From Oscillospiraceae bacterium (GTDB taxonomy: Bacteria; Bacillota; Clostridia; Oscillospirales; CAG-272), in contig SVTT01000004.1 of assembly GCA_015063625.1 (NCBI GenBank), positions 2,223-66,222 of the forward strand: a stretch of 64,000 bases of DNA, written 5' to 3'. Below, piece by piece: positions 31,226 through 50,400 of the stretch. Made by a program: the position numbers and the translations under genes. How positions within the stretch are numbered: the stretch's first letter is position 1; each line of letters starts with the position of its first letter. Under the pieces are notes generated by a model, which worked only from the letters and a program-made list of their open reading frames with translations, was not told where the DNA came from and searched no databases.

Positions 31226-31267
31226 GCAGCCGCCCCCCTTCGGACAGGGGGGCGGCTGCTTTTTTGC
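31226..31267 (+). terminator. rho-independent terminator after the MATE gene
   Basis: GCAGCCGCCCCCC-TTCGGACA-GGGGGGCGGCTGC then TTTTTTG. Confidence 0.75.
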
Positions 31268-31350: not shown

Positions 31351-31468
31351 GTGAGCATCGTTCGTTTGTAACGTGCTGTCGTGGGCGTCGTTTGTCCCAT
31401 CCGTTCCGCATCAGAGGATGCGCACGCGCATACGATAAAATATTATTATATAAATGTATTACAATTTA

Positions 31469-31497
31469 TTGACATCTGTCACGGGAAGTGCTATAAT
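31469..31497 (+). promoter_or_regulatory. perfect consensus sigma-A promoter (TTGACA-N17-TATAAT) at the head of the accessory operon
   Basis: TTGACA 31469-31474, TATAAT 31492-31497, 17-nt spacer; no terminator seen until at least 54.5 kb. Confidence 0.65.
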
Positions 31498-31579
31498 GAA
31501 AAACGGTATATTTTTCATGAACGGTGATGCGGGAAGAGCACGCGTCACCCCCACAAAAAACATTTTGAAGGAGAAAATT

Positions 31580-32506
31580 ATGAGCAATACCATCGAGATC
31601 AAAAAAAGAAATTCCGAGGAGGTCGCCTGCTGGAAGGTCGAGGTGGATGCCGTGACCCCCAACACCGTGATCGCGGCGGAAACCGGCGTGACCGCTGTGC
31701 TGAAGATCAACGGTCAGATGAGATTGGTGCTGGGCACGACGGCCGTGGTCAACAGCCTGATGAATCCCGGAAAGGGCGCCAAGCTGCTGGGCGGCAATAA
31801 GCCCTACGATAAGGTTGAGATCTACGCGATCGACCAGACCAGTGACTTTTTTGCCGAGTGGGGACTTGCGGGCAATATGGCGATCCCCGCATACGATAAG
31901 GAGAACGACGTGCATTGCAACGTGGTCGCCTTTGGTGAGTACTATTACAGGATCGAGAACTTCCTCAACTTCATCAGCTCCTTTTCCTTTAACAGCGCGG
32001 GCGAGATCACGCGCGATGACGTGCGCGAGCTGCTCCGTGCCGAAACGGCGGGCGTCGTCAAGTCCTTCTTTACCTCCAAGCTCAATCAGTTCGGTCTGCG
32101 CGCCTGCCAGTCAAGACTGGGCGAGTATGCCGAGGACATCAAGGAGGCGATCAATGCCAAGCTGGAGAAGAAGGGCCTGACGGTCTACAACTTCGTGGTA
32201 CTTAAGCTTTCCTACGATCCCAAGCACGAGGCGGCAATCAAGGCGCTTGACGACCTCAAGCTCGGTGTCAAGGGCAAGAAGATCGTCAACGTCGGCAACC
32301 GTGACGACATCGACGTTGCCAAGGCTGCGGCGGATATCGATCTTGCCTTCATCAAGGCGAAGGGCGAGGCGAACAGAGCACAGGTCGGCGCTCCCGAAAA
32401 GCCTCGGGAGATCACTGCGTCAAGCGTGGTCTGCCCCCGCTGCAAGGAGAGAAATCCCGAGGGCACCAACTATTGCAGCAGATGCGGCGAAAAGCTTTCC
32501 AAATAA
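31580..32506 (+). CDS. SPFH/band-7-like protein with C-terminal zinc ribbon (COG4260 / YdjI-like)
   Basis: about 300 aa, stomatin/prohibitin-like core and terminal CPRC...CSRCG zinc ribbon; GAAGGAG RBS; B. subtilis YdjI of this family partners with PspA. Confidence 0.65.
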   Translation: MSNTIEIKKRNSEEVACWKVEVDAVTPNTVIAAETGVTAVLKINGQMRLVLGTTAVVNSLMNPGKGAKLLGGNKPYDKVEIYAIDQTSDFFAEWGLAGNMAIPAYDKENDVHCNVVAFGEYYYRIENFLNFISSFSFNSAGEITRDDVRELLRAETAGVVKSFFTSKLNQFGLRACQSRLGEYAEDIKEAINAKLEKKGLTVYNFVVLKLSYDPKHEAAIKALDDLKLGVKGKKIVNVGNRDDIDVAKAAADIDLAFIKAKGEANRAQVGAPEKPREITASSVVCPRCKERNPEGTNYCSRCGEKLSK

Positions 32507-32532: not shown

Positions 32533-33441
32533 ATGGGATTGTTCGGATATAACGCGAAAGACTATGCGAAGAACACCGAGATCATGAAGCAGAAGATCCA
32601 GGATCTTTGGCAGCGTGCCATGCAGTACCCCGGTGTGGGTACTGCGCTGAACACGGCGATGATCAAGATGCAGGAGTTCCCCAAGGGCGCTGACGGCAAG
32701 CAGCTGGAGCAGATCGATGCACGTATCTTCAAGCTCATCGATCAGATGATGACCGACGTGCAGCAGGAGAGCGCAGGTAAGCTTTCGGCGCATGCCAATA
32801 TGCTGATGGCTGCCGTCACCAAGTCGAGAAACTACGGCAAGGAGGCGTATCCGCCCGAGCAGCTGAAGGCACAGGAGATGATGGCGGAGTGCAATGCCAA
32901 CATCGAGGAGAACCTTACACAAAAGGAGAAGATCGCCAAGGAGATGGAGGCGATCATCAATCGTGCCAAGAAGATCCAGGCAGAGAACCCCAATTCCGCC
33001 GAGCTTCAGCGCCTGCAGCTCAAGTACGCACAGTTCAACAAGGAAAAGGATCGTATCGAGCAGAATCTTCAGCTCTGGGTCAAGCAGTACAACAACACCG
33101 TCAGACAGCTCAAGGTCATGGAGGACGGCTCGGTCTATGACGAGATCAGCGCCACCAATCTGCAGACTCCCGCGCAGTTCGCGCACATGGTCGAGCAGGT
33201 CAGCGTGAAGCTTAACAAGATCGTTGAGGACCAGACTGCCATCGACGACATTGCCAGCGGCTACGAGGAGGAGAAGAGCGCAGGCGTGCGTAGCACCGCC
33301 AGCGCCGATGACGGCGGCTTCTGGGCAGCCATGAACAATAGCAGCGACGTGAGCTCGGATATCTTCGGCTCCACCGCGACCGCCAAGGACAGCGGGGAAA
33401 CGGGCGGCGATCAGTCTTCCTCCAACCCGTTCGGTTGGTAA
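32533..33441 (+). CDS. coiled-coil protein, divergent PspA/ESCRT-III (Snf7)-like candidate
   Basis: begins MGLFGY like the two paralogs downstream; all-helical heptad-rich sequence with an acidic Ser/Asp-rich tail. Confidence 0.4.
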   Translation: MGLFGYNAKDYAKNTEIMKQKIQDLWQRAMQYPGVGTALNTAMIKMQEFPKGADGKQLEQIDARIFKLIDQMMTDVQQESAGKLSAHANMLMAAVTKSRNYGKEAYPPEQLKAQEMMAECNANIEENLTQKEKIAKEMEAIINRAKKIQAENPNSAELQRLQLKYAQFNKEKDRIEQNLQLWVKQYNNTVRQLKVMEDGSVYDEISATNLQTPAQFAHMVEQVSVKLNKIVEDQTAIDDIASGYEEEKSAGVRSTASADDGGFWAAMNNSSDVSSDIFGSTATAKDSGETGGDQSSSNPFGW

Positions 33442-34135: not shown

Positions 34136-35284
34136 ATGGAAAACAATATGATCCTCGCCCAGCACTATCAGACGCATTTTGATACGGCGAGAGCCTATAT
34201 CAAGCAAAACAACCTTTATGATGCGCAGGTGCACTTCAAGAAGGCGCTGGAGTATGCCATCAAGCTGGCGGATTCCACCTACGGTGCAGAGCGCACCAAC
34301 TATTTCACCAAGGCGAAGAGCATTGGCGACTTTATCAAGCAGATCGAGCAAAAGATCGCCGAGGCAGAGGCGGCGGCGAAGAATAAGCCCGCAGGCGGAG
34401 CCGCCGCCGTGACCAAGAAGGCGGCAGCAGCGAAGAAGGAGGACGGCAAGGAGGGCGAGCAGCGCCCCAAGCCCACGGTCGAGGAGGCGCTCGGCAAGCT
34501 CAATGAGCTGACCGGCCTTTCGGGCGTGAAAAAGGAGGTCAGCGATCTCGTTGCCGAGCTGAAGGCACAGCTCATCCGCGAGGAGCGCGGCATGGGAAGC
34601 GGAGATGCCCCCCCTCGCCATCTTGTCTTTAAGGGTAACCCCGGTACGGGTAAGACCACCGTGGCAAGAATCATGGCGGATATCTACTGTGCACTGGGCG
34701 TGCTTGAGGGCGGACAGCTGGTCGAGGTGCAGAGAAACGACCTGGTTGCCGGCTATGTCGGTCAGACTGCCATCAAGACCAAGGAGGTCATTGAGAAGGC
34801 AATGGGCGGCGTGCTCTTCATCGACGAGGCATATACGCTTGCCAAGGGTGGCAACGACTTCGGTCAGGAGGCGATCGATACGCTTCTCAAGGAGATGGAG
34901 GACCATCGCAAGGATCTGATCGTCATCGTTGCGGGCTACGACGAGCCCATTGAGAAATTTATCGGTTCGAACGCGGGTCTGCAATCGCGCTTCCCGACCT
35001 CGATCCAGTTCACCGACTATAACGGCGAGGAGATGTACGCCATTTTTGAGCGCATGAGCAAGAAGGCGAATTACACCTACGGGGATCAGGTCAAGGAGAT
35101 GCTCAAAAAGCATTTCGTGCAGCTGTACGAAAATCGCGGCGAGAACTTCGGTAACGCGCGTGACGTGCGCAACTTCTTTGACAAGGTCAAGCGCCGTCAG
35201 AACGTGCGTATCTCGAAGATCGAGGGCTACATCTCGAATGAAACTCTGGCAGAGATCCTGCCCGAGGACCTGAATCTTTCCTAA
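34136..35284 (+). CDS. AAA+ ATPase of the SpoVK/CbbX type with an N-terminal MIT-like three-helix domain
   Basis: N-terminus LYDAQVHFKKALEYAIKLADSTYGAERTNYFTKAKSIGDFIKQIEQKI fits the MIT helical pattern; Walker A GNPGTGKTTVARI, Walker B LFIDEAYTL, SpoVK-family VAGYVGQTAIKTKEVI. Confidence 0.65.
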   Translation: MENNMILAQHYQTHFDTARAYIKQNNLYDAQVHFKKALEYAIKLADSTYGAERTNYFTKAKSIGDFIKQIEQKIAEAEAAAKNKPAGGAAAVTKKAAAAKKEDGKEGEQRPKPTVEEALGKLNELTGLSGVKKEVSDLVAELKAQLIREERGMGSGDAPPRHLVFKGNPGTGKTTVARIMADIYCALGVLEGGQLVEVQRNDLVAGYVGQTAIKTKEVIEKAMGGVLFIDEAYTLAKGGNDFGQEAIDTLLKEMEDHRKDLIVIVAGYDEPIEKFIGSNAGLQSRFPTSIQFTDYNGEEMYAIFERMSKKANYTYGDQVKEMLKKHFVQLYENRGENFGNARDVRNFFDKVKRRQNVRISKIEGYISNETLAEILPEDLNLS

Positions 35285-35956: not shown

Positions 35957-38146
35957 ATGAACGAAATGGAAATGATGCTGACCACCTTTGTGAGTCAGGC
36001 TAAAGACGCAATCAAAAACGAGCAATACGACGTGGCATCGGAGCGCCTTGTCAATGCGCAGAAGTGCGCCCTGCTGCTGGCGAAAAAATTTGAGGGAAGT
36101 GCACGCGAAAAGTATCTTGCCTCGGCAAAGAGCCTGAAGGCGCTTTACGAGCAGGTGCTGGCAAAGAGCGCAAGCGTAAAGAATACGCCCACCGCGCCCA
36201 CCGCGCCCACTGCCGCCCCCTCCGCCCCCGTCACGGGGGGGGCACCCCAAAAGGACAGTGCGGGGAGCAGTGCGCCTGCACGGGCATCGGGTAATGAGGG
36301 CGGCGCGTACGTCCCTCCAAAGCGGAACGATGCACTCAGCCCGCTGTACCTTTCCGACTATATCGGTCAGCCGGGTGCGGTCATGGCAGTGCGCGATCTG
36401 ATCACCGCGGCACGCCTGAAGAATGCGGCAATGCCTCACCTGATCGTATACGGTTCGCACGGTCTTGGAAAGACCACCTTCGCCAAGATCATTGCCAACG
36501 AGATGCGCGCCAAGTTCACCGAGATCAACGTCTCCAAGATCAATCCGGCGGAAATGATCGCCATTCTGAAAAAATTGCAGCCCAAGGAGATCCTGTTTAT
36601 CGACGAGATCCATACCCTGCCGCTTTTGGTGGCGGAATCTATTCTTTATTCCGCCATGCAGGATGGGCGCATTACCTATACGGTGGGTAAGGGACAATTT
36701 GCCAAGACCGAAACGCTGGAGCTGCCGCCCTTCACACTGATCGGCGCGACCACCGAGATCGGTAAGCTGGCAAAGCCCTTTACCCAGCGTGCCATTCAGG
36801 TAAGACTGGAGGAATATACCGACGAGGTGCTTTCGGGCATCATCTCGGGCTCCTTCTACAAGCTTGGCGTGAAGATCACTCCCGAGCGGGCATTGGTGAT
36901 CGCCAAGCGCTGTCGCAACAACCCCAGAGTTGCGAACAGCATGGTCAAGCGCATCTCGGATAAGGCACTGGTGCGCTATGCCAAGATCAACAATCTTGAA
37001 ACCTTCGGCGCCTTTGATTCGGTCGATGCCATCCGTAAGCTCGGCATCGAGGTATCGGATCAGGTGATCGCAGAATTCTTTAAGGAAAACGGTATCGACG
37101 AGCACGGACTTGAAAACGGTGACAGAGAGCTGCTGCGCATGATCATTCATCGCTATCACGGCGGTCCTGTCGGCATTGATACGCTCGCGCGTGCCATGAA
37201 CGAGAGCAACAACGTGCTTGCTCAGAAATATGAGGCGTACCTGATCAAAAAGGGTATGCTGCGGGTAGATCGTGACGGTCGTGTCGCCATGGCGGCGGCA
37301 TACGAGGCACTGGGTCTTCCCGTGCCCCCCGAAAAGAGGGGAGAGCAGGCGGGCGAAAAGGAGCCTGCCGCGACCGAGGAAAAGAAATCCAAGTATGACA
37401 AGCGCACCGTGATCGTGTCGCACGTTGCCGAGGAACTGAAGTGCAAGAAGGTGGAGGACCTGATCGTCTATCCTTCGAACGTCAGAACCGTCAGCGAATC
37501 GCTTGACGAGCTCTTCCCCGACGTGGAAAAGCCCTATGAGGCAGAAACACGGCACTTATGTGAGCTTGAGCTTGACTTTGACACGCACAAGCGCATCCTG
37601 ATCTGTGATTCCTTCCTTGAAAGCCGCTTTGCCACGATGATGGCATCGGTTGGCTTCCTGCACGATATCAAGGCGCAGACACTGGAGATCCCCTATATCT
37701 CCCAGGAGCTTGCCAACAGAAGATATTTCCCGGATTTTGTGGTCAAGGACAACAAGGACCGCATTGCGGTCATCGAGATGAAGAACTTCGATATGCTGTC
37801 CTACCATCTCAACATTGACAAATACGAGCATCTCATGCGTTATTGTGAGCAAAAGGGATACGGCTACGCCGAGGTGGCAAAGGAGTACGATGCCGATACC
37901 TACGTATCGGTGGAAATGCTCAAGAGCGCCCCCGTTGACCGTGAGCTGGAGCAGTTCATCATTGAACGGATCGAGAAGAACGGCAATGAAACGGGCGAGG
38001 GCATGTTCCGCGAAAAGGACTTTGCCGATTACGTTGCCGCGCACGGAAAGACCGATCGGAAAAAGCTCTATACCGTGCTGCTCAATAACCGTGCGCTCAA
38101 AAACGTTGACCGTATCGGCAACGATATGAAGATCGTGATGAATTAA
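35957..38146 (+). CDS. three-domain protein: N-terminal MIT-like domain, RuvB-like AAA+ ATPase, C-terminal PD-(D/E)xK nuclease-like domain
   Basis: MIT-like helices (QYDVASERLVNAQKCALLLAKKFEGSAREKYLASAKSLKALYEQVL); RuvB signature (GSHGLGKTTFAKIIANE, LFIDEIHTL, PPFTLIGATT, RNNPRVANSMVKRI); C-terminus has E...PDFVV...IAVIEMK acidic/lysine motif spacing of PD-(D/E)xK nucleases. Confidence 0.6.
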   Translation: MNEMEMMLTTFVSQAKDAIKNEQYDVASERLVNAQKCALLLAKKFEGSAREKYLASAKSLKALYEQVLAKSASVKNTPTAPTAPTAAPSAPVTGGAPQKDSAGSSAPARASGNEGGAYVPPKRNDALSPLYLSDYIGQPGAVMAVRDLITAARLKNAAMPHLIVYGSHGLGKTTFAKIIANEMRAKFTEINVSKINPAEMIAILKKLQPKEILFIDEIHTLPLLVAESILYSAMQDGRITYTVGKGQFAKTETLELPPFTLIGATTEIGKLAKPFTQRAIQVRLEEYTDEVLSGIISGSFYKLGVKITPERALVIAKRCRNNPRVANSMVKRISDKALVRYAKINNLETFGAFDSVDAIRKLGIEVSDQVIAEFFKENGIDEHGLENGDRELLRMIIHRYHGGPVGIDTLARAMNESNNVLAQKYEAYLIKKGMLRVDRDGRVAMAAAYEALGLPVPPEKRGEQAGEKEPAATEEKKSKYDKRTVIVSHVAEELKCKKVEDLIVYPSNVRTVSESLDELFPDVEKPYEAETRHLCELELDFDTHKRILICDSFLESRFATMMASVGFLHDIKAQTLEIPYISQELANRRYFPDFVVKDNKDRIAVIEMKNFDMLSYHLNIDKYEHLMRYCEQKGYGYAEVAKEYDADTYVSVEMLKSAPVDRELEQFIIERIEKNGNETGEGMFREKDFADYVAAHGKTDRKKLYTVLLNNRALKNVDRIGNDMKIVMN

Positions 38147-38158
38147 CGTGGTTATGAC

Positions 38159-39112
38159 ATGAATAAGACTTTTTATAAACGCAAGCAACTGCCAAAGGTC
38201 TTTTTTGACAGACATATGCAGGTGCGCTCCTATGCCTACGGCAGCGAGGTCCATGCGCGTTTTCTTGAGTGGCAGCGTGACTATGTAAACGCAAGGGGTG
38301 GCACGGGCGAAAAGCTGATCATTGCGGCACAAAGCAGCATTTACGGTGTGGGGGATACCGCACACGCAAGGGTGGGTGATGCCTCGGTGCTTCCTCCGCT
38401 GCTCGTTGACGGCATGCGCTTCACGGCGGATGCCGACGGCTGGGTGTCGATCGGCGGCTCTCGCACCGCACTGAATCTCGGGCTTGAATTGAAGGCATGG
38501 GCACTTCTCACTCTGAGTGAACGGCAGGCAAAGCGTCAGCTGCTTTGCGTGATCGGTAAGCCCAACGGCGTCGATTGCCTCAAGCTCTCCTTGTACCCCG
38601 TTTCCCGACGCGGCGTTGATGAGCATGCCGAGCAGTCGCTCGATATGGAGCATACCTTGAGTGCCGAAAGCTTTTTGATCTGCCTTGGCAGACACATGTT
38701 TGTCGTGCATAACACACAGCTCCATTATTATTACTATCACCCGGAACGGGGTGGGCTTGAGGAGGTTGCCATCGGTGGCGATCTGCCCTGCGCCGAGGCA
38801 CCCGCCTGTCGGCAAGTGCTTCCCCGTGTAGTGACCAATACCGCGGGGTATGTATTCTGGATGTCGGGGGATACGGTATACGGCTTTCCTGTCGGCTATC
38901 CGAGGCGGCTGCTCCGCATTGAGTGTGACGCAAGGGAAACGCTCTCGGGCATCACCTGCGTCGGCGAGGCACTGCTCGTTTACCGCAAGAGCAAAAACAC
39001 CTCAAGGCTCTCCTGTGTACGCTATGTCAAGGGACAGGGCGGCGAGCTGATCGGCACGCCGCTTGACGAAAATGCGCGTCGGATGTACGAGGGGGCAAAG
39101 GAACGGCGATGA
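38159..39112 (+). CDS. hypothetical protein (317 aa)
   Basis: ORF tightly packed between the RuvB-like gene and the SNF2 helicase; no family recognised. Confidence 0.5.
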   Translation: MNKTFYKRKQLPKVFFDRHMQVRSYAYGSEVHARFLEWQRDYVNARGGTGEKLIIAAQSSIYGVGDTAHARVGDASVLPPLLVDGMRFTADADGWVSIGGSRTALNLGLELKAWALLTLSERQAKRQLLCVIGKPNGVDCLKLSLYPVSRRGVDEHAEQSLDMEHTLSAESFLICLGRHMFVVHNTQLHYYYYHPERGGLEEVAIGGDLPCAEAPACRQVLPRVVTNTAGYVFWMSGDTVYGFPVGYPRRLLRIECDARETLSGITCVGEALLVYRKSKNTSRLSCVRYVKGQGGELIGTPLDENARRMYEGAKERR

Positions 39113-39163
39113 AACAGACAATGATATTTACAAAGTGGCAATACCACCAAGGAGGCAATGGTT

Positions 39164-42100
39164 ATGATCGATAAGAATGACGTCAAAATGCCTGTACAAC
39201 GGGAAAATATGGAGTCCATGCTCGGCGATAAGGAGCAGGTGCGAAAAATAGAGGACCTTCTCGATATGGTCAGTGAGGTGGAGAACAAGCAGGAGCTGCG
39301 TCTGAAATCCGACTACTATTCGAGATTCCATTGGTTCGGCGCCTCTGCGGGGAAAAGCGATAAGAGCTATTTTTCCTATCAGGAGCAGGCGGTCTACGAC
39401 TTTATCTTCAATCTGAATAAGAGTGGTATCCTTTCCGACCAGGTCGGTATGGGTAAGACCATTGAGGCAGGCATGATCATCAGTGAGCTTGCCAGCCGTA
39501 ACGAGCTTCGCTCTCTGCTCATCATCGTGCCCAACGAGATCATGGCGCAGAAATGGGAGTACGAGCTTGCCAATAAATTCGGCATCAAGCCCTACCGCAG
39601 AACCGTCAACGGTGTAGAGGAGATCTATCCCGACGTCAAGGCGCTGCGCAATTTTGACGACTTTTGCAAGTGCGTCTTCGAGTGCCTTGCCGAGGAGAAG
39701 TTTGTTGAGCTTTACGAGCATCAGTTCAAGCACAAATATAAGGCAGCCCCCGGCGCAAAGGATACGCTTGACGGGCTGATCCGCGGCTTCATCAATGACG
39801 ATATCCGCGAGGCGGTAGAGATGATCAACCGCGGTCTTGAGGCAAACGAGATCGAGGGCATCGAGGTCGTATTCGACGGCAAGAAATATGCGATCAAGGG
39901 CACCTCCTTCGAAAAGGCGTATACCTACGATGACGGAGGCGAGATCGCCCGCTTCCTCAACGGCAGACAGAATCAGAGCATGCTGGAGAACACCATCAAC
40001 AACGCCTTCTTCGTCAAGCAGTACGAGCGCCTTGTGAAGCAGGAGCTGAACGGTCTTTATACGCTGATCGGTGAGTATTTCACCACCGTTCCCGAGGAGA
40101 TCTCCTCGATCGCCGAAAGCATGTCCAACCGCTATCCCATCCTGGTCATTCCGATCTCCTATTCCGAGAACAAGGGGGACAAGGTGGTGCATCATCAGTT
40201 CCTCAACCGCACGCTGCTGCCCGAGATCAAGAATTACAAGCACAAATATATTATCCAGGACAAAAACGATCATATCGACGAGATCTATGAGAACTACCGT
40301 ATCATCGATTTCTTCATTGACGTGGCATACCAGACCCTGATCGTCGATGAGGTGCATGATTACATCGACGTTGCCTCCAAGATCGATCGCAATCAGTTCC
40401 ATAAAAACCAGGGCTACGCCAAGTTCCCCTCCAAGGAATACGACCGCTTTGAGCTCTTTGACGATTACTACTTTATCAAGAAGAGCAGCCTTTACAAAAA
40501 GCTCAAGACCCTCTCGGATAAGGCAAGCCGAAAGATCTTCCTCACGGCAACGCCGATCAAGTCGGACATGGTCGACTTCTATTTGCTGACCCTGCTTGCC
40601 AGTAACAAGGACGCTGATGCCTATAAGCGCGTCAGCATCAACCTTGACCAGGCATATCCCTTGAGCGAGGACCGCGAGGAGGCGATCGCCAACCTCTACA
40701 ACACCTTCAAGGCGTGTGTGGAGTACAATGCTGCCAGAAACTTCTGTGACCGCCACAGTGACTTCACCAGACGCGAGCGCAGTGATACGGGTGCCGAGAT
40801 CGGCAGATTCGTTTATCCCTATTTCAACAACTCCTTCCTTCTCACGACCACCGACGAGCGCGCCGTGAAGGATTATCTTCTCAGCCAGATCAGCTATATG
40901 TCGATGGAGGAGGTCGTGCTGGAGCTGATACTTTCCTACAATGCCGAGAAAAATGACAGCTCGAGCAGCGATTTTGACATCAAGAACGTCATGAAGGAGC
41001 TTTGTGAGCTGCTGTCCTACCCCGATAACGAATACCGTATTCTCAGCCTCCAGACCCGCGTGGTGTTCAGAAGCCTTTTCAATAACAGCATCAAGATCCG
41101 CTTTGAGGAGGATTTTACCCAGAACGGCAAGCCCATCAAGCGCATCAGACAGCTGCTTGAGCTGGAGGACGGTGCGAGAAAATGGAACAAGACCTATCAC
41201 AGATACGGTATCCGTCATACCCGTCACCAGACCTACAATCTCAGTAACTGCAAGGAGCTGCAAAAGCTCAGCCAAAACCGCATTGAGCGCTATAAGAACC
41301 TGCCCGTCTGGCCCAAGCGTGACGGCAAGGTCATTTACCTCGTGCGTGACGATATCTTCTTTGACTGTCTGCTTGACGTGAAGCGCCCCTGCGAGGCAAC
41401 CAAGCAGAGCGTGATCCGCATGGAGGATCTGCCGAACTTTGACCGTCTGATCGGAAGCGAGGCAGAGAAGAAGGAGCGCTTTGAGAGCGCAACGGCGATC
41501 TTCAATTACATCAACGATTCGATGAGCGGCGGCGTCCCCGGGACGCACGAGCCTGCCAGTAGCCGTTACGAGTCGGTCGATCTTGACGATGCGGGCATGG
41601 TCGATTATAAGCTTGCTCTTGTCAATAAGCTGATGCTGGGCAGAGAAAAGGCGCTCGGCTCGATCAGTAATAAGGTGCTACTGTTTGCCGAGAACAACCG
41701 TGATGAGATCGTGGAATGGTTCAAGTACCAGAAGTGTGCTCCCCTTTATTCGGGCGAGACGTTGGATGACAAAAAGGTGCAGACCTATCGCGAAAAGTGG
41801 CGCAGCTATGCGGTGGATACCGTGGGTGATGAATGGCACGTTTCGGAGGATGCAGAGGACCTGAGCCGTTATGACGGCAATCTGCTCATCATCATCGACC
41901 CGAAGCGCTATGAAAAGGGCGTTGACCTGCAAAAGGCAGATACCATCATCAACTTTGATATCAACTATGACCCGCTGAAGATGGAGCAGCGTATCGGTCG
42001 TATCGACCGTATCCGTCCGACGGGCAAGGTGCCTCAGATCAACATCGTGTCCTTCGTTCCCATGAACGACATGAGTGGCTTTGTCATCAACTTTTTCGCC

Positions 42101-42991
42101 AACGAGCTCAAGATGTTCACGCAGTGGATGGGTGAAACCACGGGTATCGTATCGGTGGAGGAGGACGGCACCTCCAAGAAGGACGGCGAGGATGTGTCCT
42201 TCGAGGGAAAGGTCTACGGACTTGAAGCCTACTATAAATACATGTACGAGCTTTGCAACCGCGGCGTGACCGATGCTGAGATCGAGAAGATGGCGGCAGA
42301 CTTCTCCAAGAAGTTTGGCGTGGATAAGAATATGGCAGAGATCGATTTCCGCTTCCTCAAGACGGTTCGCGGACAGTTTGATGCCATCTTCCGCAATTCG
42401 ATCTCTCCTCAGCGTGCAGGCTACACGGTGTCCAACAAGCCGGGCACCAGGCTGATGCGCTTTAACAGCTCTATGGGTGTATTTATGCCTTGTAGCGCCG
42501 CAGACTGTAAGTCCTGCCCCAACAGCAAGGACTGTAAGGCTCAGGGCAGCGGCATGCGCAACCAGTACAGCAGCTTCCGTCGCGGCGTGGAGGAATTCTT
42601 TGATAACAGCATCAAGTATTATCAAAAGGAAACCGAGACGTTTCTCAAGCGCCTCAGCGACCGCGTCATTTCGGGCAGTGACGGTGAGCATATCAAAAAC
42701 GAGCTCAACGCACGCACCAATCTCTTTAAGCAGAAGGCAAAGGAGATCAAGGCGCTGCTTCCCGGCGTGTCAAGCGATGCATTCGTTATGCCCTTCGCCG
42801 ATTATCTGAAGATCTTCAACCCCATCAAGGAGCTTTATTGGGATACGGTGGTCTATAAGTACCTCGGACTTGTCATCGAGCAGTTCCATAAGCAGTGTGA
42901 CAGCGTTCTTAAGGGCGCGCGCCTGTTTGAACGCTTTGTCAAGACCCTCTCGATCGCAGACTTTATGAAGAACATGGAAGGAACGGTATAA
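39164..42991 (+). CDS. SNF2-family helicase (1277 aa)
   Basis: motif I DQVGMGKTIEAG, motif II LIVDEVHDY, motif III FLTATPIKS, C-terminal helicase domain with QRIGRIDRI (motif VI); AAGGAGG RBS 8 nt upstream of ATG 39164. Confidence 0.8.
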   Translation: MIDKNDVKMPVQRENMESMLGDKEQVRKIEDLLDMVSEVENKQELRLKSDYYSRFHWFGASAGKSDKSYFSYQEQAVYDFIFNLNKSGILSDQVGMGKTIEAGMIISELASRNELRSLLIIVPNEIMAQKWEYELANKFGIKPYRRTVNGVEEIYPDVKALRNFDDFCKCVFECLAEEKFVELYEHQFKHKYKAAPGAKDTLDGLIRGFINDDIREAVEMINRGLEANEIEGIEVVFDGKKYAIKGTSFEKAYTYDDGGEIARFLNGRQNQSMLENTINNAFFVKQYERLVKQELNGLYTLIGEYFTTVPEEISSIAESMSNRYPILVIPISYSENKGDKVVHHQFLNRTLLPEIKNYKHKYIIQDKNDHIDEIYENYRIIDFFIDVAYQTLIVDEVHDYIDVASKIDRNQFHKNQGYAKFPSKEYDRFELFDDYYFIKKSSLYKKLKTLSDKASRKIFLTATPIKSDMVDFYLLTLLASNKDADAYKRVSINLDQAYPLSEDREEAIANLYNTFKACVEYNAARNFCDRHSDFTRRERSDTGAEIGRFVYPYFNNSFLLTTTDERAVKDYLLSQISYMSMEEVVLELILSYNAEKNDSSSSDFDIKNVMKELCELLSYPDNEYRILSLQTRVVFRSLFNNSIKIRFEEDFTQNGKPIKRIRQLLELEDGARKWNKTYHRYGIRHTRHQTYNLSNCKELQKLSQNRIERYKNLPVWPKRDGKVIYLVRDDIFFDCLLDVKRPCEATKQSVIRMEDLPNFDRLIGSEAEKKERFESATAIFNYINDSMSGGVPGTHEPASSRYESVDLDDAGMVDYKLALVNKLMLGREKALGSISNKVLLFAENNRDEIVEWFKYQKCAPLYSGETLDDKKVQTYREKWRSYAVDTVGDEWHVSEDAEDLSRYDGNLLIIIDPKRYEKGVDLQKADTIINFDINYDPLKMEQRIGRIDRIRPTGKVPQINIVSFVPMNDMSGFVINFFANELKMFTQWMGETTGIVSVEEDGTSKKDGEDVSFEGKVYGLEAYYKYMYELCNRGVTDAEIEKMAADFSKKFGVDKNMAEIDFRFLKTVRGQFDAIFRNSISPQRAGYTVSNKPGTRLMRFNSSMGVFMPCSAADCKSCPNSKDCKAQGSGMRNQYSSFRRGVEEFFDNSIKYYQKETETFLKRLSDRVISGSDGEHIKNELNARTNLFKQKAKEIKALLPGVSSDAFVMPFADYLKIFNPIKELYWDTVVYKYLGLVIEQFHKQCDSVLKGARLFERFVKTLSIADFMKNMEGTV

Positions 42992-45666
42992 TGGCAACAT
43001 CCGCATTTGAAAAAAATATCGGCGGCGAATATTCCTGTACGCTTTCCGCCCGTTTTCGCGAGCGAGGGGGCAGGCTGTTCTTGGTCGATTATTCCAAGCG
43101 TTGCGCGGCGTCGGCACTGACCTCACTGTTCGGCGAGGGCACGTACGGCTCGTTCCTGCTTCTCGTCAGCAATCCCGAGGTCGCCGCTACCTTCAAGACC
43201 GTTCTCGCACCTCTTTTCTCTGATCTTGCGGTCATTGATTCGGAGAGTGCTCTGAACGGTGCGCTGGGGAATTGCGGCAGAACGGCAGGCGAGCTGCGCT
43301 CGCATGCCGAGCGCCTTGCGCAGTCCAAGCCGCATCTGATCGTCGTTAAGGCGGCAGGCGGCAAGGAGATCTTCAATATGCCCCTTGCGGCAGACGATGC
43401 CAAAAGCGGTGTTTATGGGGGAGAGAGCTGCGGAAAGCTGCTCTTCTCGGATCTGCTTGCCGAGGGCAATTATGAGTTTGTTGCCGTAGACGACGTGCAT
43501 TCCTATCTTTTGCTGGAGGAGGCAGATCGCGAGCACCGCGTGGCACACCCTGCCGCCGCATACGAGCGACTTGATTTCCTCGGCAAAAATTATTACACCC
43601 CCATCTCCTCCTCTCTGAAGCGGCTCAAGCAGCTGACCACGGGTGCCAAGGGTGTCGTGGTAATGTCGGATACCGTGCTGGAGAAAAACGCCGTCGAGCT
43701 GTTTGCCGTTCTCGAGCTGCTGGATACGCGCTTCTCCGCCCGTCGCGTCAAGGAGATCGTTAAGCCCGTGGCGGATCACTTTTCCTTTGACGGTGCAAGC
43801 GGCTACGGGGGCGCGTGCGATATCATCTATAACGCCGTGACCTACGGACGTGACGAGGAGAGCATCCTCAGTGCCTGCCTGCAAAGGACCAAGGGCATCG
43901 CACAGCGCGTTCCCGGCGATATCAATACCATGCGCGACTATCTGACCGAGGCAATTGACTATCTCTCCTTTGAAGAGGTCTTCCTCATGGTCATGCATAC
44001 CCGTATGACCGACAAGCAGAGCACGAGATGTCCCTCGATCGATACGGTCATCAACAATATGCTCAACAGCTATGACGAGATGGCGGCGTGCTTTGCCGAC
44101 ATGTTCTTCAACAACCCCGTCAAGGGTGAGCTTGAAAGAGCCGTTTCGACCCCGTATGTGCTGGATATGTCGGCAAAGGAGATGAGTGCCGTCCTCTCGG
44201 TCTTCCTAAAATACGGCGCCTACCATTATATGAATAACGCCCCTGAGCGCCTCGGCGTCATTCGTCTGAAGCGTGACGATTCGGGCTTTGAGTATTTTGC
44301 AAGAAGATACGCGAAAAACGAGATCGAGGATGCACGCTGCTTCTCCGTGCTGGGAGAAGGCAGTGATGACGTATGCAAGTGCGTCGAGCTGAAGCGCCTT
44401 GCCGACGGCAAGGATGCCGATGCAAGCGTGACCTCGCCGCTGGTGATCGTGACCGACCGCGACCCTGCCTCGCTGCAATCGCAGGTCAAGAGCGCGCTGA
44501 CGGGCTACACGATGCTTCCCGGTATCGATGCGATCAAGCATGGTGCAGGCGCAGAGGCGGTGCTGATGAGCGTGAAGCAATTCCGTGAGACGCCCTATTC
44601 CGCAGAGCTCGGCTCGGTGGTGTTCTTTGACGCCGTTGCTGACGTGGTGCTCGCAAAGCGCCTGATCGCAAAGGCACAGGAGGTCACCAAGGGCAAGGTG
44701 TTCTTGCTTGCCTCCTACGGCAATATGGACGGTGTGCTTGCCGACGAGTGGCAGGTAGAGCTGAAGGCGGATGACAGGATGCTGCCCTTTGCCTCCTCGG
44801 AGATCTCGCTCAAGCACGGTGCCCGTTACGATTATGCCGATGTGGTAGATCGCATTGACCGTATCTATGGGGATCTGCTGGTCACGGTGACCAACGGGAC
44901 GCAGGAGCGAGTGAAGGAGCTGCCTGGCGCGATCAATAATCTTCTGGTCAGCTTTGCGACGAGAGCGACCTTTGATCCCGAAATGATGGCGCTCGATCTT
45001 GAGTATACCGCCAAGCTCGGCAAATATTTTGACGGCGTATTCCGCAACACCGCTTCGGTTGGCAATCACGGCGAGCATTTCGTGGTGAGAGCCACCGATT
45101 ATGCCCCCGCGGTCGGCGGCAAGGTCCCTGTGCCCAAAACGCTCGGAGAGTCGGTCGGCGTGTTCTTTAACACCTGTGCCAAAATGCTTCGGCACGAATG
45201 TGATATCATTCATAACAACTGTGCCGACTGTGCCGATTATCAAAAATTTTTAGCCAACCGCTTTGATGAGCTTGAGAGCTCGATGAAGGAATTCTTTGAG
45301 ATGGCAGATCATTACGTTGCCAAGGCAAGAGATCTTCGCTACCAGATCCAGCATGACGATATCATCATCGGTCACGGTGATGATGAGGATGACGTGGGAC
45401 TGAGTGCGGAGCTCATCAAGAGCCATCAGACGGCAGCCGTCAACGCGCTGCGTCAGCTGCAAGGCAGACAGGCGGGAGCGAGCAAGGTCTTTCATGCCGA
45501 ATACAGTCATGTTCTCGCCATCCGCGAGGCGGTGTATCAGGTTCTGCGCAAGGTCCTGCGCAAGTACTACAAGGCGGTCATGATGGTCTTTGCCGACTCT
45601 ACGGCTTTGGCGAAAAGCGGACTTGTCGGCGCTCGCGAAGCGGTGCGTGCGCTTGACAGGACCTAA
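42991..45666 (+). CDS. large hypothetical protein (891 aa) with a C-terminal Cys cluster
   Basis: start overlaps the SNF2 stop (TAATG), indicating translational coupling; CxxxCxxxxxxCxxC cluster near residue 730. Confidence 0.55.
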   Translation: MATSAFEKNIGGEYSCTLSARFRERGGRLFLVDYSKRCAASALTSLFGEGTYGSFLLLVSNPEVAATFKTVLAPLFSDLAVIDSESALNGALGNCGRTAGELRSHAERLAQSKPHLIVVKAAGGKEIFNMPLAADDAKSGVYGGESCGKLLFSDLLAEGNYEFVAVDDVHSYLLLEEADREHRVAHPAAAYERLDFLGKNYYTPISSSLKRLKQLTTGAKGVVVMSDTVLEKNAVELFAVLELLDTRFSARRVKEIVKPVADHFSFDGASGYGGACDIIYNAVTYGRDEESILSACLQRTKGIAQRVPGDINTMRDYLTEAIDYLSFEEVFLMVMHTRMTDKQSTRCPSIDTVINNMLNSYDEMAACFADMFFNNPVKGELERAVSTPYVLDMSAKEMSAVLSVFLKYGAYHYMNNAPERLGVIRLKRDDSGFEYFARRYAKNEIEDARCFSVLGEGSDDVCKCVELKRLADGKDADASVTSPLVIVTDRDPASLQSQVKSALTGYTMLPGIDAIKHGAGAEAVLMSVKQFRETPYSAELGSVVFFDAVADVVLAKRLIAKAQEVTKGKVFLLASYGNMDGVLADEWQVELKADDRMLPFASSEISLKHGARYDYADVVDRIDRIYGDLLVTVTNGTQERVKELPGAINNLLVSFATRATFDPEMMALDLEYTAKLGKYFDGVFRNTASVGNHGEHFVVRATDYAPAVGGKVPVPKTLGESVGVFFNTCAKMLRHECDIIHNNCADCADYQKFLANRFDELESSMKEFFEMADHYVAKARDLRYQIQHDDIIIGHGDDEDDVGLSAELIKSHQTAAVNALRQLQGRQAGASKVFHAEYSHVLAIREAVYQVLRKVLRKYYKAVMMVFADSTALAKSGLVGAREAVRALDRT

Positions 45667-45680
45667 CAGAGGAGGAACGT

Positions 45681-47372
45681 ATGGCTTTAACTGATATAGC
45701 AAGACAACTAAAGGAAACATTTGAGGGCTTTGGCGGCGCAGAGCACCGTGATGAGCTGAAGCAGTACCGTGAGATCTACGGTGATGCCGAATGCGTCCAG
45801 ATCGGTGAAATGGATTATATCGTCATCAACGACGTTTATAAGAGCAAAGAGTACGCCGACGTGCCGGAGAGCACCAGCCCGCTGTTCTTCAACAGCATCA
45901 ATAATTCCTATGCGATCATTGATGCCGAGACCTCCTCGACTCTGATTGACGAGGTCTATTCGCGTGTCACCTACATGCAGCGCGTCTGCCGCGTGGATAC
46001 CGCCCCCGACAAGGAGGAGATCCGCCGTTCGCTGCGCGATCTGATCGGAAAGGGGATCACCCTTTCGGATGTTCTGATCAAATCCGAGAGCACCGATTCC
46101 AATAAGGCAAACATCTTCCAGTGCCAGCTGATCAAGGATACCGGCGTATCCGCCGTGCCCGACGTTTATAGCTTTGTTCTGAAAAACGGTGAGATCAAGG
46201 AGATCGCCGAAAATATCATGCGTCAGATCCGTCGCTCGGGTGAGGTCAACCTTCTTAAGGACAGAAATGTGCTGGAGGAGAACAAGGCCGCGATCCAGCA
46301 GGCGGTGTTTGATAAGTACATCAACTCGGACGTGGATATCCAGGGCATCACGGTCAAATCCATCTTCGAGATCAGCATGACCTTCCTCAACATTCACGTC
46401 ATGCTGACCGACGAGGCAAAGAGAAGGGGCGTGTTCAACACCTCCTATCTTGCCAGCGAGAACAATGAGTTTGAGGCGCTCAATGCCAACATTCATGTCT
46501 GTAACTGCGGTCATGAGCTGGTTGACGTGAAGGATCCGAGCAAGATCTACCGTCTGCACGTCAACACCGATGCCTACGACGAGGAGTTTTCCACCGAGAA
46601 CCAGCGCGTGCATGCGGTGGGCTGTGAGGATTGCCTTGTCAAGTGCGAGGAATGCGGCGGATGGCACTTCAATTATGAAAAGTTCATTGGCTCGGATTAT
46701 TACGACAAGGTCAAGCTCATGCCGGGCAGAGGCTTCATCAAGGGGCTTCGTACCATCGATGTGAACTACTGCTCCTGCCGAGAGGGCATTGAGTGGATCT
46801 ATGACGAGCGCACCGGCTCCGAAGAGGAGCACGACGTCATTCCTCTGAAGAAGATGGCGTTCATCAACTATGCCAACGAGCAGATCGCCTCCTATGATGA
46901 CTACATGGCATATTATGAAAAGAGAAGGGGCAACAAGAAGATGGATGCCCTTGAGGAGGTCAAGCTTGCCAAGCGCGTTCGCGCCGATTTCAAAAAGCAC
47001 CTGGCGAGCAAGTTTGATATCGACGTAAAGGATATCAGGATCTCCTCCTCGGATAAGTGCATGACCTGCAGCATCTGCGGCGGCAATTATTACAGAGGAA
47101 CCGTTGCTTCGGATTATGACGATATCTACCGTTGTGAGATCTGTGATGAGCTGATTTCGGAAAAGCGCAGCAGCGTCACGAGAATCGACGGCATCGTATT
47201 TATGAATCACAAGGTGAAGAACCGTTCGGTGATCAGTAAGTATATCGTTACCAAGTTCGGCAACCTGAAAAAGCTATCCTCCTCCTTCCTTGAGATCGAG
47301 CCCTCCGTCGAGCCCCAAGAGGCACCTGTCGAGGCAGAGGTCGAGCCCGAGGAGCAGGTGGCCGAGAATTGA
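45681..47372 (+). CDS. hypothetical protein (563 aa) with multiple Zn-ribbon-like CxxC pairs
   Basis: GAGGAGG RBS; several CxxC...CxxC pairs (CNCGHE, CEDCLVKCEECGG, CMTCSICGG, CEICDE). Confidence 0.55.
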   Translation: MALTDIARQLKETFEGFGGAEHRDELKQYREIYGDAECVQIGEMDYIVINDVYKSKEYADVPESTSPLFFNSINNSYAIIDAETSSTLIDEVYSRVTYMQRVCRVDTAPDKEEIRRSLRDLIGKGITLSDVLIKSESTDSNKANIFQCQLIKDTGVSAVPDVYSFVLKNGEIKEIAENIMRQIRRSGEVNLLKDRNVLEENKAAIQQAVFDKYINSDVDIQGITVKSIFEISMTFLNIHVMLTDEAKRRGVFNTSYLASENNEFEALNANIHVCNCGHELVDVKDPSKIYRLHVNTDAYDEEFSTENQRVHAVGCEDCLVKCEECGGWHFNYEKFIGSDYYDKVKLMPGRGFIKGLRTIDVNYCSCREGIEWIYDERTGSEEEHDVIPLKKMAFINYANEQIASYDDYMAYYEKRRGNKKMDALEEVKLAKRVRADFKKHLASKFDIDVKDIRISSSDKCMTCSICGGNYYRGTVASDYDDIYRCEICDELISEKRSSVTRIDGIVFMNHKVKNRSVISKYIVTKFGNLKKLSSSFLEIEPSVEPQEAPVEAEVEPEEQVAEN

Positions 47373-47401
47373 GAAGCACATGAAAGGTATTAAGGACAGA
47401 C

Positions 47402-50400
47402 ATGACAAACAATAATGTGAATTCTTCGATCCTTTCGGAACACAGAAGTGTCGTCAAAACAAGATATATTCTTGCGATCTTCAACTTCCTTGCGATCTTT
47501 GCAGGAACGCTTGTGACGCTCTTCTTCGTGTCCCGAAGGGGTGTTTACGATGTGATCTTAAAGCATCTGTATGTTCTGGCGGTCATCAATATCCTCCAGA
47601 TCATTCTCTGTATCACCGAATACGTGTTGAGAAATCACAAGGGTATCAGCTATAAGCGGATGCCGCTTTTGACCTATGGCGTCGGTGTGCTCTGGCTGCT
47701 GGCGCTGGTCGGCGAGCTGGTTTCGGGCACCATGAAGCTGGGAACGCTCAGAACCGACCTTGCGATCATTGCAGGCATCCAGCTCTTCGTTGCCATTATG
47801 ACTTACCTCACCTGGCCGAGCATGGACAGGCGTGCGATCGATGCCATGATTCGCCCGAGTGTCAGAGGTGACGAGAAAAAGAGGGCAAAAAAGGCAAGAT
47901 CCTTTGTGCGGAGGTATGCCGTGCTGTTCGTGGTGATCCTGCTCGCGCAGGTGGGCACGCTGGTTGCTTACAAGATGCCCCCCACGTTCTACGATCTTTT
48001 CTCGGACACCCGTGCGCTGGAGTACGAGCTGAACGAGGAGGGTGACGGCTATATCGTCACTGCGGTCTACAAGGGAACCTCTACCAAGGTCAATATCCCT
48101 GCCACCTATAACAATCTGCCCGTCGTGGGCATTGCCAAGGGTGCACTAATCGATGACAATTTGCTGGAGAATTACCAGTATAACGAGATCGTGTTCGGCA
48201 CGCCCACCACCGTCGAGGGTGAGAGCGTGCTGGTCAGCAATCTGCAATATCTTGAGGATGGCGCGATTGCCAACAACAAGATCGAAACGCTGACGCTTCC
48301 CGCGTCGCTCAAGAGCATCGGTGTCAACGCCGTGCGAAGCAGCTCGCTGCGCACCGTTGAGTACTGTGCCGCTGCCGATTTCCGCTTTGAGAGCTTTGCT
48401 GAGTGTACGGCGCTTTCCAAGGTGGTCATGTCGGGTGACAGCGTGGGCAAGATCATTTCGCTCAACGGAATGGATGCCGATCGCGTTGTGATCCAGGTCA
48501 ATAAGGATATCTATAACCGTTACCGCGAAAACAACCTGAACTACGTCAAGAGCTTCCGTCCCATTCTTCCCGACGACGAGTTCTGCGTGGATTTTTACAC
48601 CAACTGTGATTATTACATCGACAGTATCTTCTGCAAGATCGGCGAGAGCGTCAGTCTGAAGGTCACCGACCTGAAGAAGGCAAGCGCCAACGATAAGGGG
48701 CTTACCGAGGATACCGCAGCATATCTTGCCGACCACCATGAGCTTGGTACCGACGGTGCCAAGGCGCACAGTGCCTTCCGCGGCTGGTATTACGATGCTG
48801 CCTTTGTGTCGGAGTGCGATATTTCCGATACCACGGCTCTGGTTCTTACCGGCAACACCTCGCTCCACGCCAAGTGGATCGACGAGTATAAGGCAGTGGT
48901 CGACTGGGGCGTGATGCCCGACAGAACGGGCGTAAGGGAGCTGTATTGGACCGATGAGGATGTCTGCACCTTCCCTGTGGTTACCGACCGTGTCGGTTAT
49001 TCGCGCGGCGTGGTCTGGAGTGTTGACGATTCCACCGAGCAGGTCTTCACCTCGGCAGGAATCAAGAAGGATGTCACGCTGAAGGCAACCTGGCTGCTGG
49101 ATGCCCCTGTCATTTCGATCGCACACACCCTCAGCGGCGCGGCAAGCGGCGAGGAAACCACCCAGAACTATGCCGCCTTCGTTTACGATGAGCATAAGGT
49201 GCTTTCGCTGTCCGCCAACCGCACGCATCCGCTTGACGGACGCAGTCTGGACGGAAGGGTCACCGATTATACCTATGAGTGGATCAGGCAGGGGAGCACG
49301 GAGCCCGATAAGGCTCCTTCCGTCAACCTGCAAAACGTCGCGGACACCGGTATTTATACGCTGCGCGTGACGGTACATTCGCCTTATGGCGAAACGGCGA
49401 CCAGCGAGGTCACCTACGAAGCGCGCATTGATAAAAAGCCCATTGATATCGGCACGGCAGAGCTTTTGAATGAAAGCATGGTGTACAATGCCACCAACAG
49501 GACGCTGGTGATGGGGGGCACGCTCAACACCGAGCGCATCGACGTTCTTTATAAGTATTACAGCAACGTCGGCGGCGTGAGAAGCTTTGTTTGTGACAAT
49601 GTGGGCGTGATGAATGCGGGCACCTATACCGTCGAGGCAGTCCTTTCCAAGAACAATGCGGCGGAGGCGGCAAACTATGAGACCCGCACCCTGACTGCGA
49701 CCATGCAGATCACCCCGAAGCCCCTTTCCTTCATCAGCTGGTCGAATGACAGCTTTGTTTACAACGGCACCGAGCGCACGGTCGTCATGAACGTGGGCGG
49801 TATTCTCGGCAGCGACGTGGTGGAAATCACCTATCGCGGCAATAAGGAGACTGACGCGGGCAGCAACTATACCGCCGTTGCCGTCGGGGTCACCAATCCC
49901 AACTACTCGTTTGCGGCGATCGAGGCAACCAATGACAATACGCTGATCTGGCGCATCGATCCCAAGCCCGTCACGGTCAAGAACTGGCAGACCGACGGCA
50001 GCGACTGGTCCTCCTTCAGCGTTGTTTACGATGGGCGTCAGCATAGCGTTTACGCTGTGCTGGAGGGTGCCATCGAGGGGGATGTCGTCAGCTTTGTCTA
50101 CGATCATGTCAATCACAGCGTCAATGAGCAGATCAATGCAGGTCAGTACGTGGCGTCCATCATCGGCACCACCAACTCCAACTACGTCTATGACGCCGAT
50201 GCCGTCGATGCAAGAGCAACACAGGTGTGGGAGATCACGAGAAGAACGCTCACGATCAACTATCTGTCGTCGGGCACCTTCTATTACAACGGACAAAATC
50301 AGGGTATCGGCGTGCAGATCCTGAACTTCTGCGGCTCCGATGCTGAGAATTTCAATATAGAGATGCTGGATCTTGCCGACAATACCGCAACGGCAAGATT

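Follow-up and report, generated by a model that had tools for sequence, protein, structure and literature searches.

A RuvB paralogue with MIT-like and TnsA-like domains, encoded beside Snf7-like proteins in a gut Clostridia bacterium, as a candidate scaffold-tethered DNA motor

Introduction

Why should a bacterium encode a RuvB-type DNA motor that carries a nuclease-like domain at one end and an MIT-like helical bundle at the other? Proteins with MIT domains are recruited to the tails of ESCRT-III filament proteins, as in Vps4/CdvC, spastin, katanin, calpain-7, ULK3, and MITD1. In literature from 2024-2025, bacteria are said to have only PspA/Vipp1-type relatives of ESCRT-III, without Vps4-like partners (PMC7619361), and other ESCRT components are stated not to be found in bacteria (PMC11188069).

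Here we describe a chromosomal gene for such a protein from an uncultured gut Clostridia bacterium, together with its neighbors in a window of 64,000 nucleotides (the whole stretch of DNA analyzed). On balance we favor the reading that it is a RuvB paralogue converted into a motor that is tethered to a scaffold and equipped with its own cutting domain.

Results

The predicted protein comprises, from N- to C-terminus, a three-helix bundle, a complete RuvB core, a TnsA-like PD-(D/E)xK nuclease, and a winged helix (Table 1). The same four-module architecture occurs in approximately 87 homologues from Clostridia metagenome bins, and in an alignment of 27 homologues the ATPase and catalytic residues are invariant or nearly so. 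Two homologues, P0085 and P0087, have long insertions in their linkers; both retain the TnsA module, and their low coverage in homologue searches results from these long low-complexity insertions and not from a different C-terminus. Current pipelines label the family ordinary RuvB or “AAA family ATPase,” and the JGI label on homologues is “Holliday junction DNA helicase RuvB.”

Table 1. Features of the operon and domains of the MIT-RuvB-TnsA protein, in window positions.
Feature	Positions	Strand	Residues	Remarks
SPFH (Band_7_1) protein with C-terminal zinc ribbon	31454..32506	+		First operon gene
302-aa coiled-coil protein	32533..33441	+		MGLFGY N-terminus
Second Snf7-like paralogue, 215 aa	33472..34119	+		C-terminal DELAELRKMV helix
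MIT-like domain and SpoVK/CbbX/EccA-type AAA+ ATPase	34136..35284	+		Candidate Vps4 analogue
Snf7/ESCRT-III-like protein, 195 aa	35329..35916	+		N-terminal MGLF motif; C-terminal MIM1-like helix IDDQLKELEKML
MIT-like domain, RuvB-type AAA+ core, TnsA-like nuclease, and winged helix, 729 aa	35957..38146	+		
MIT-like three-helix bundle	35957..36184	+	1-76	Helices 3-20, 24-44, 48-75
Pro/Ala/Ser-rich linker	36185..36331	+	77-125	Variable length; unconserved in alignment
RuvB core: P-loop domain, lid, C-terminal winged helix	36332..37330	+	126-458	Pfam, NCBIfam, alignment
Charged linker	37331..37438	+	459-494	Variable, gapped in alignment
TnsA-like PD-(D/E)xK endonuclease	37439..37891	+	495-645	E555, D593, E607, K609
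C-terminal helical/winged-helix domain	37892..38143	+	646-729	Like C-terminal half of TnsA
Downstream genes of same operon: 317 aa, 1277-aa SNF2 helicase, 891 aa, 563 aa, 2365-aa LRR/MBG surface protein	38159..54499	+		

The central core has the RuvB_N domain, lid, and C-terminal winged helix in RuvB order (Pfam E-values 4e-41, 3e-10, and 3e-15). Walker A and B, sensor 1, arginine finger, and sensor 2 are all intact, with K172, D216/E217, T265/T266, R278, and R324 invariant across 27 sequences, residues that we take to map onto the corresponding motif positions of E. coli RuvB; these results, like those for the other domains below, bear out a preliminary description of the sequence, which had recognized the RuvB motifs almost position for position. 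The core nevertheless stands apart from canonical RuvB. It scored above the cut-off of one NCBIfam RuvB model (NF000868; 287.7 bits against 282) and below that of another (TIGR00635; 249.1 bits against 299.05), shares 39-43% identity with canonical RuvBs from 11 taxa including Oscillospiraceae and other Clostridia, and fell outside the canonical clade in a rough neighbor-joining tree without bootstrap. A contig scan with the full-length alignment, in which the pattern FTLIGAT matches every canonical RuvB, returned 80 loci, all ordinary ruvB, which provided a benchmark of 36-41% identity and an outgroup. Scanning of the operon genes with Pfam and NCBIfam found no RuvA domain.

The C-terminal region, which the preliminary description had taken for a restriction-endonuclease-fold nuclease, scored 33.4-35.3 bits against the Pfam model Tn7_TnsA-like_N, above its gathering score of 26.5. 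An alpha-beta-beta-beta core places E555 on the helix, D593 at the start of a strand, and E607 and K609 on the next strand. The nuclease assignment had been made to depend on the acidic and lysine residues being conserved in homologues, and each of the four is at least 90% conserved in the 27-sequence alignment, lost only in P0093. The fold comparison proposed at the same time matched TnsA most closely, including its C-terminal winged-helix domain, with Hjc junction resolvases as the next closest nuclease fold. Identity of the nuclease region to TnsA is only 15-18%, and a profile of the C-terminal module found no match among PDB sequences; TnsA was found by fold comparison only. The TnsA-like domain is predicted from these features to be an active nuclease.

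At the opposite end of the protein, the best whole-domain structural matches of residues 1-76 are true MIT domains, and superposition of the approximately 75-residue bundle on solved MIT domains spans its whole length; TPR and designed proteins match at similar Z, as three-helix bundles do. The Pfam MIT model matched neither this protein nor any other in the window, even at E-values up to 10, and the MIT-like profile searched against PDB sequences reached the VPS4A/B MIT domains at E 0.09-0.4, below significance. An MIT-type bundle, as the N-terminal helices had first been described, is supported by fold only and not by sequence family. The module is shared with the neighboring SpoVK-type AAA+ ATPase (hhalign 98%, E 1e-13), which the MIT-like HMM also finds in the window (E 1e-9).

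Two neighbors of the motor gene are putative ESCRT-III relatives. The 215-residue protein and the 195-residue family are paralogues (hhalign probability 97%, E 4e-11, 187 columns). Pfam Snf7 gave no direct match to the window's own proteins, and CHMP2A is collinear with the 195-residue protein over 140 residues at a weak E of 0.24. A profile of the 195-residue family found 350 relatives, and Pfam Snf7 is matched by seven of 40 divergent ones (best E 1.4e-9). The relative P0366, for instance, was found by the family profile at E 3e-15 and aligns with Pfam Snf7 over positions 3-169 of 171 (E 4e-6), its 27.0 bits falling just short of the gathering score, 27.3. Homology to Snf7 is transitive, through relatives, and suggests a Snf7-like identity for both proteins. 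Snf7-like proteins of this family end in a conserved amphipathic helix resembling MIM1: 133 of 229 family proteins, compared with 0.5% of shuffled tails, contain the motif [DE]xx[LIMV]xx[LIMV][KRQ]xx[LIMVF] in their final 25 residues, and only 10 of the 229 fit the strict MIM1 pattern.

Gene fusions connect these Snf7-like proteins to DNA motors. Core gene order is kept at 50-75% identity in several metagenome bins; in other lineages a Snf7-like domain stands in place of the MIT domain, joined directly to RuvB-TnsA (as in P0094), to RuvB-NERD, or to FtsK (as in P0303 and P0312, from sister loci). The 40 divergent relatives of the 195-residue family include 12 fused to FtsK_SpoIIIE and five fused to RuvB; two carry NERD and two match the HerA domain. 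Across nine loci, the N-terminus of the translocase is either MIT or Snf7-like and never both, a free Snf7-like protein is always kept (with a MIM-like tail in all but one), and the MIT-SpoVK AAA+ protein is missing only from the minimal locus L006. This Rosetta-stone pattern of replacement and fusion supports docking of the motor on ESCRT-III-like polymers. Recruitment to ESCRT-III-like proteins by MIT-MIM interaction, raised earlier as a possibility, gains comparative support from the fusions, the shared N-terminal module, and the MIM1-like tails, and we infer that the MIT domain of the motor may bind Snf7-like tails in this way.

Three parts are swapped between lineages: the nuclease is TnsA-like, NERD, or absent; the tether is an MIT domain or a Snf7 fusion; and the motor is RuvB or FtsK. 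The FtsK-fused variants seem to have no nuclease and, judged by eye from their sequence ends, no gamma domain. Because P0093 has lost its catalytic residues and the FtsK fusions are apparently nuclease-free, cutting may be dispensable for the core function.

The operon follows a terminator at 31226-31259, and all its gaps are at most 45 nt. Its SPFH gene probably starts near 31580, as indicated by a sigma-70 consensus promoter (12/12) at 31469-31497 and by homologues of 300-309 residues. For the SpoVK-type ATPase the mechanical reading frame opens at TTG 34109, and homologues begin at ATG 34136. This ATPase matches Pfam AAA and AAA_lid_6, and the NCBIfam models SpoVK, EccA, and CbbX all below cut-off; with a cassette of this type it is a candidate analogue of Vps4, not an orthologue. 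The 302-residue protein has no profile similarity to the Snf7-like pair. Six genes make up a core (the SPFH-zinc-ribbon protein, three coiled-coil proteins, the MIT-SpoVK/CbbX-type AAA+ protein, and MIT-RuvB-TnsA), often followed by an SNF2 helicase and giant surface proteins; the block from the 317-residue protein to the 2365-residue surface protein is present in four of the six loci with an MIT-tagged translocase. Neither the three coiled-coil proteins nor the 317-, 891-, and 563-residue proteins had any match in Pfam, NCBIfam, or PADLOC, even at E-values up to 1. The latter three, like the giant surface proteins, are not accounted for by a docking model.

The SNF2 neighbor best matches the DrmD, DpdE, BrxH, and ZorD models, over helicase motifs only. 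PADLOC found no defense system in the locus, giving generic P-loop matches for the motor gene and, apart from those of SNF2, none for the other genes. The locus is chromosomal and surrounded by housekeeping genes, with no flanking integrase or terminal inverted repeats; plasmid, phage, and IMG/VR collections yielded neither the nuclease module nor the Snf7-like protein, and a metagenome scan with the nuclease alignment returned only three short contigs. Flanking genes vary among related loci, with a TIR-LRR gene close by in L003, and RuvB-TnsA, RuvB-NERD, and FtsK loci alike contain or adjoin genes for large LRR_5, Flg_new, or DUF6273 surface proteins.

Discussion

We propose that this operon encodes a pump and cutter docked on a membrane scaffold, a proposal that we hold to be rather probable as a whole. 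By analogy with RuvB biology, the ring would encircle double-stranded DNA and pump it using ATP. By sequence and fold, each subunit carries a TnsA-type endonuclease and winged helix on a flexible linker, and an MIT-type bundle on a second linker. Gene fusions and neighborhood suggest the remainder: the MIT domains may dock on the MIM1-like C-terminal helices of the Snf7-like proteins encoded upstream, which would polymerize on the cytoplasmic membrane together with the SPFH-zinc-ribbon protein, and the MIT-SpoVK/CbbX ATPase may play the role of Vps4, remodeling or recycling the polymer. Together these activities would reel in and cut the DNA that lies where the polymer marks the membrane.

As to which DNA, we lean slightly toward incoming foreign DNA, destroyed at a perturbed membrane site by Zorya-like logic. 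Defense and control of DNA uptake had earlier been mentioned only by way of example. In such anti-phage or anti-plasmid defense, which is a tentative assignment, the ESCRT-III-like and SPFH proteins would gather where DNA injection breaches the membrane, and would bring in the RuvB-TnsA ring and SNF2 helicase, which would draw in the DNA as it enters and destroy it. Fusion of motor to nuclease is typical of restriction-like systems, and several observations are consistent with defense: exchange of nuclease, tether, and motor modules among lineages, the helicase-motif resemblance of the SNF2 neighbor to DrmD, DpdE, BrxH, and ZorD, the variable flanking genes, and the TIR-LRR gene close by in L003. 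However, PADLOC finds no system and no known defense genes lie nearby, the plasmid and viral collections contain neither the nuclease module nor the Snf7-like protein, the locus is without flanking integrase or terminal repeats, and the giant surface proteins of the operon are left unexplained.

Next comes a role, which we regard as doubtful, in clearing or resolving chromosomal DNA that is caught as a membrane neck closes at division, engulfment, or budding. ESCRT-III-like filaments would then anchor the pump in place of the transmembrane domain of FtsK/SpoIIIE, with the nuclease as a last-resort cutter of bridges or junctions. In its favor, cytokinesis in archaea is driven by Snf7-type ESCRT-III, loci that are otherwise equivalent pair the same Snf7-like scaffold with either a RuvB-nuclease or an FtsK motor, Hjc resolvases are the nearest nuclease fold after TnsA, and the chromosomal setting among housekeeping genes bears no signs of a mobile element. 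Against neck clearance, division in Clostridia uses FtsZ, FtsK/SpoIIIE is normally present in these bacteria, a nuclease that cuts the chromosome is a hazard, the FtsK fusions seemingly lack the gamma domain by eye, and the SNF2 helicase, a trypsin-like protease, and the surface proteins are unexplained.

An unlikely third role is the loading of DNA for export: filaments would bud vesicles or bridges, the ring would fill them, the nuclease would cut the DNA free in the manner of a terminase, and the co-encoded giant LRR/repeat proteins would decorate the vesicle or contact. A motor combined with a nuclease is the logic of viral terminases, and large surface proteins accompany all three locus variants; such proteins are, however, abundant in these genomes, so that their linkage may be coincidence, and no capsid, pilus, or secretion component accompanies the genes.

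Much less probable still is an ordinary housekeeping RuvB with decorations, partnered by RuvA in standard recombination and unrelated to its ESCRT-like neighbors. The NF000868 score and the JGI label agree with this reading, but the TIGR00635 cut-off is missed, the operon lacks ruvA, linkage to Snf7-like genes is conserved, and fusions to Snf7-like domains recur; we rejected it on clade placement, at the identities given above, and gene context. Membership in a Tn7-like transposon, where the AAA+ regulator joined to TnsA would stand in for its AAA+ partner TnsC, would fit the TnsA-like fold and catalytic set, but we rejected it as wholly improbable for want of a transposase (no TnsB-type transposase or integrase was found in the operon or the nine related loci) and of terminal repeats flanking the locus, the nuclease module being likewise missing from the plasmid and phage collections.

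If the proposed docking is real, it offers a new way to target a motor-nuclease, and a compact, testable model of how a membrane-remodeling filament is coordinated with DNA at the remodeled site, a question that eukaryotic abscission, archaeal division, and bacterial sporulation still pose. The family would also be flagged among genes now annotated as plain RuvB or as AAA ATPases. More broadly, the operon and the Snf7-RuvB and Snf7-FtsK relatives suggest a bacterial Snf7-type system with MIT-tagged ATPases and DNA motor or nuclease clients. That some bacteria possess a genuine ESCRT-III machine of Snf7 type, with recruitment by an MIT-MIM code, a SpoVK/CbbX analogue of Vps4, and RuvB or FtsK ring translocases with nucleases as dedicated clients, is a speculative extension. 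If true, the ESCRT-III/MIT partnership could no longer be counted as an invention of archaea and eukaryotes, a genetically simple operon would couple ESCRT to DNA, and membrane scission would be mechanically coupled to DNA pumping and cutting, for example to cut or clear the DNA in a neck that is closing or to fill budding vesicles in the manner of a terminase. The ESCRT/PspA literature that we searched describes no system of this kind, and bacterial machinery for pumping and cutting DNA at a membrane-remodeling scaffold is apparently undescribed.

Several known systems come closest to the candidate machine. ESCRT-III with Vps4/CdvC is known from eukaryotes and archaea, whereas the host here is a bacterium, the Pfam MIT and Snf7 models do not match the window's proteins directly, the candidate recycling ATPase is of SpoVK/CbbX type, and the recruited effector would be a DNA motor-nuclease, unlike Vps4, spastin, katanin, calpain-7, ULK3, or MITD1. 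With RuvB of the RuvABC system the protein shares the three-domain core from end to end, keeping the ATPase motifs and the pre-sensor-1 hairpin region; it differs in its divergence from the RuvB clade, an operon without RuvA, the added MIT and nuclease domains, and linkage to membrane-scaffold genes. In contrast to Tn7, where TnsA works with TnsC, the AAA+ module is covalently fused and of RuvB type, similarity to TnsA is low, and no TnsB, transposon ends, or att-site machinery was found.

McrBC and the ZorD, DrmD, BrxH, and DpdE systems also couple an NTP-driven double-stranded DNA motor to a PD-(D/E)xK nuclease, and in Zorya a membrane-embedded sensor recruits a DNA-degrading motor; this locus matches no PADLOC model, and has an ESCRT-III/SPFH scaffold as its membrane element and a RuvB-type motor. 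FtsK/SpoIIIE is a ring-shaped DNA pump at a membrane constriction, a likeness that the candidate machine would share, but the anchor in our system would be a soluble ESCRT-III-like filament protein or MIT tag instead of transmembrane helices, and the motor in the window is a RuvB-type AAA+ with a nuclease, not RecA-like. Finally, as in PspA-YdjGHI of B. subtilis, an SPFH zinc-ribbon protein is encoded beside ESCRT-III-superfamily proteins; YdjI and archaeal SPFH-zinc-ribbon proteins have been discussed (PMC11188069). Here, by contrast, the filament proteins are Snf7-like rather than PspA-like, and are accompanied by MIT-domain ATPases and DNA enzymes.

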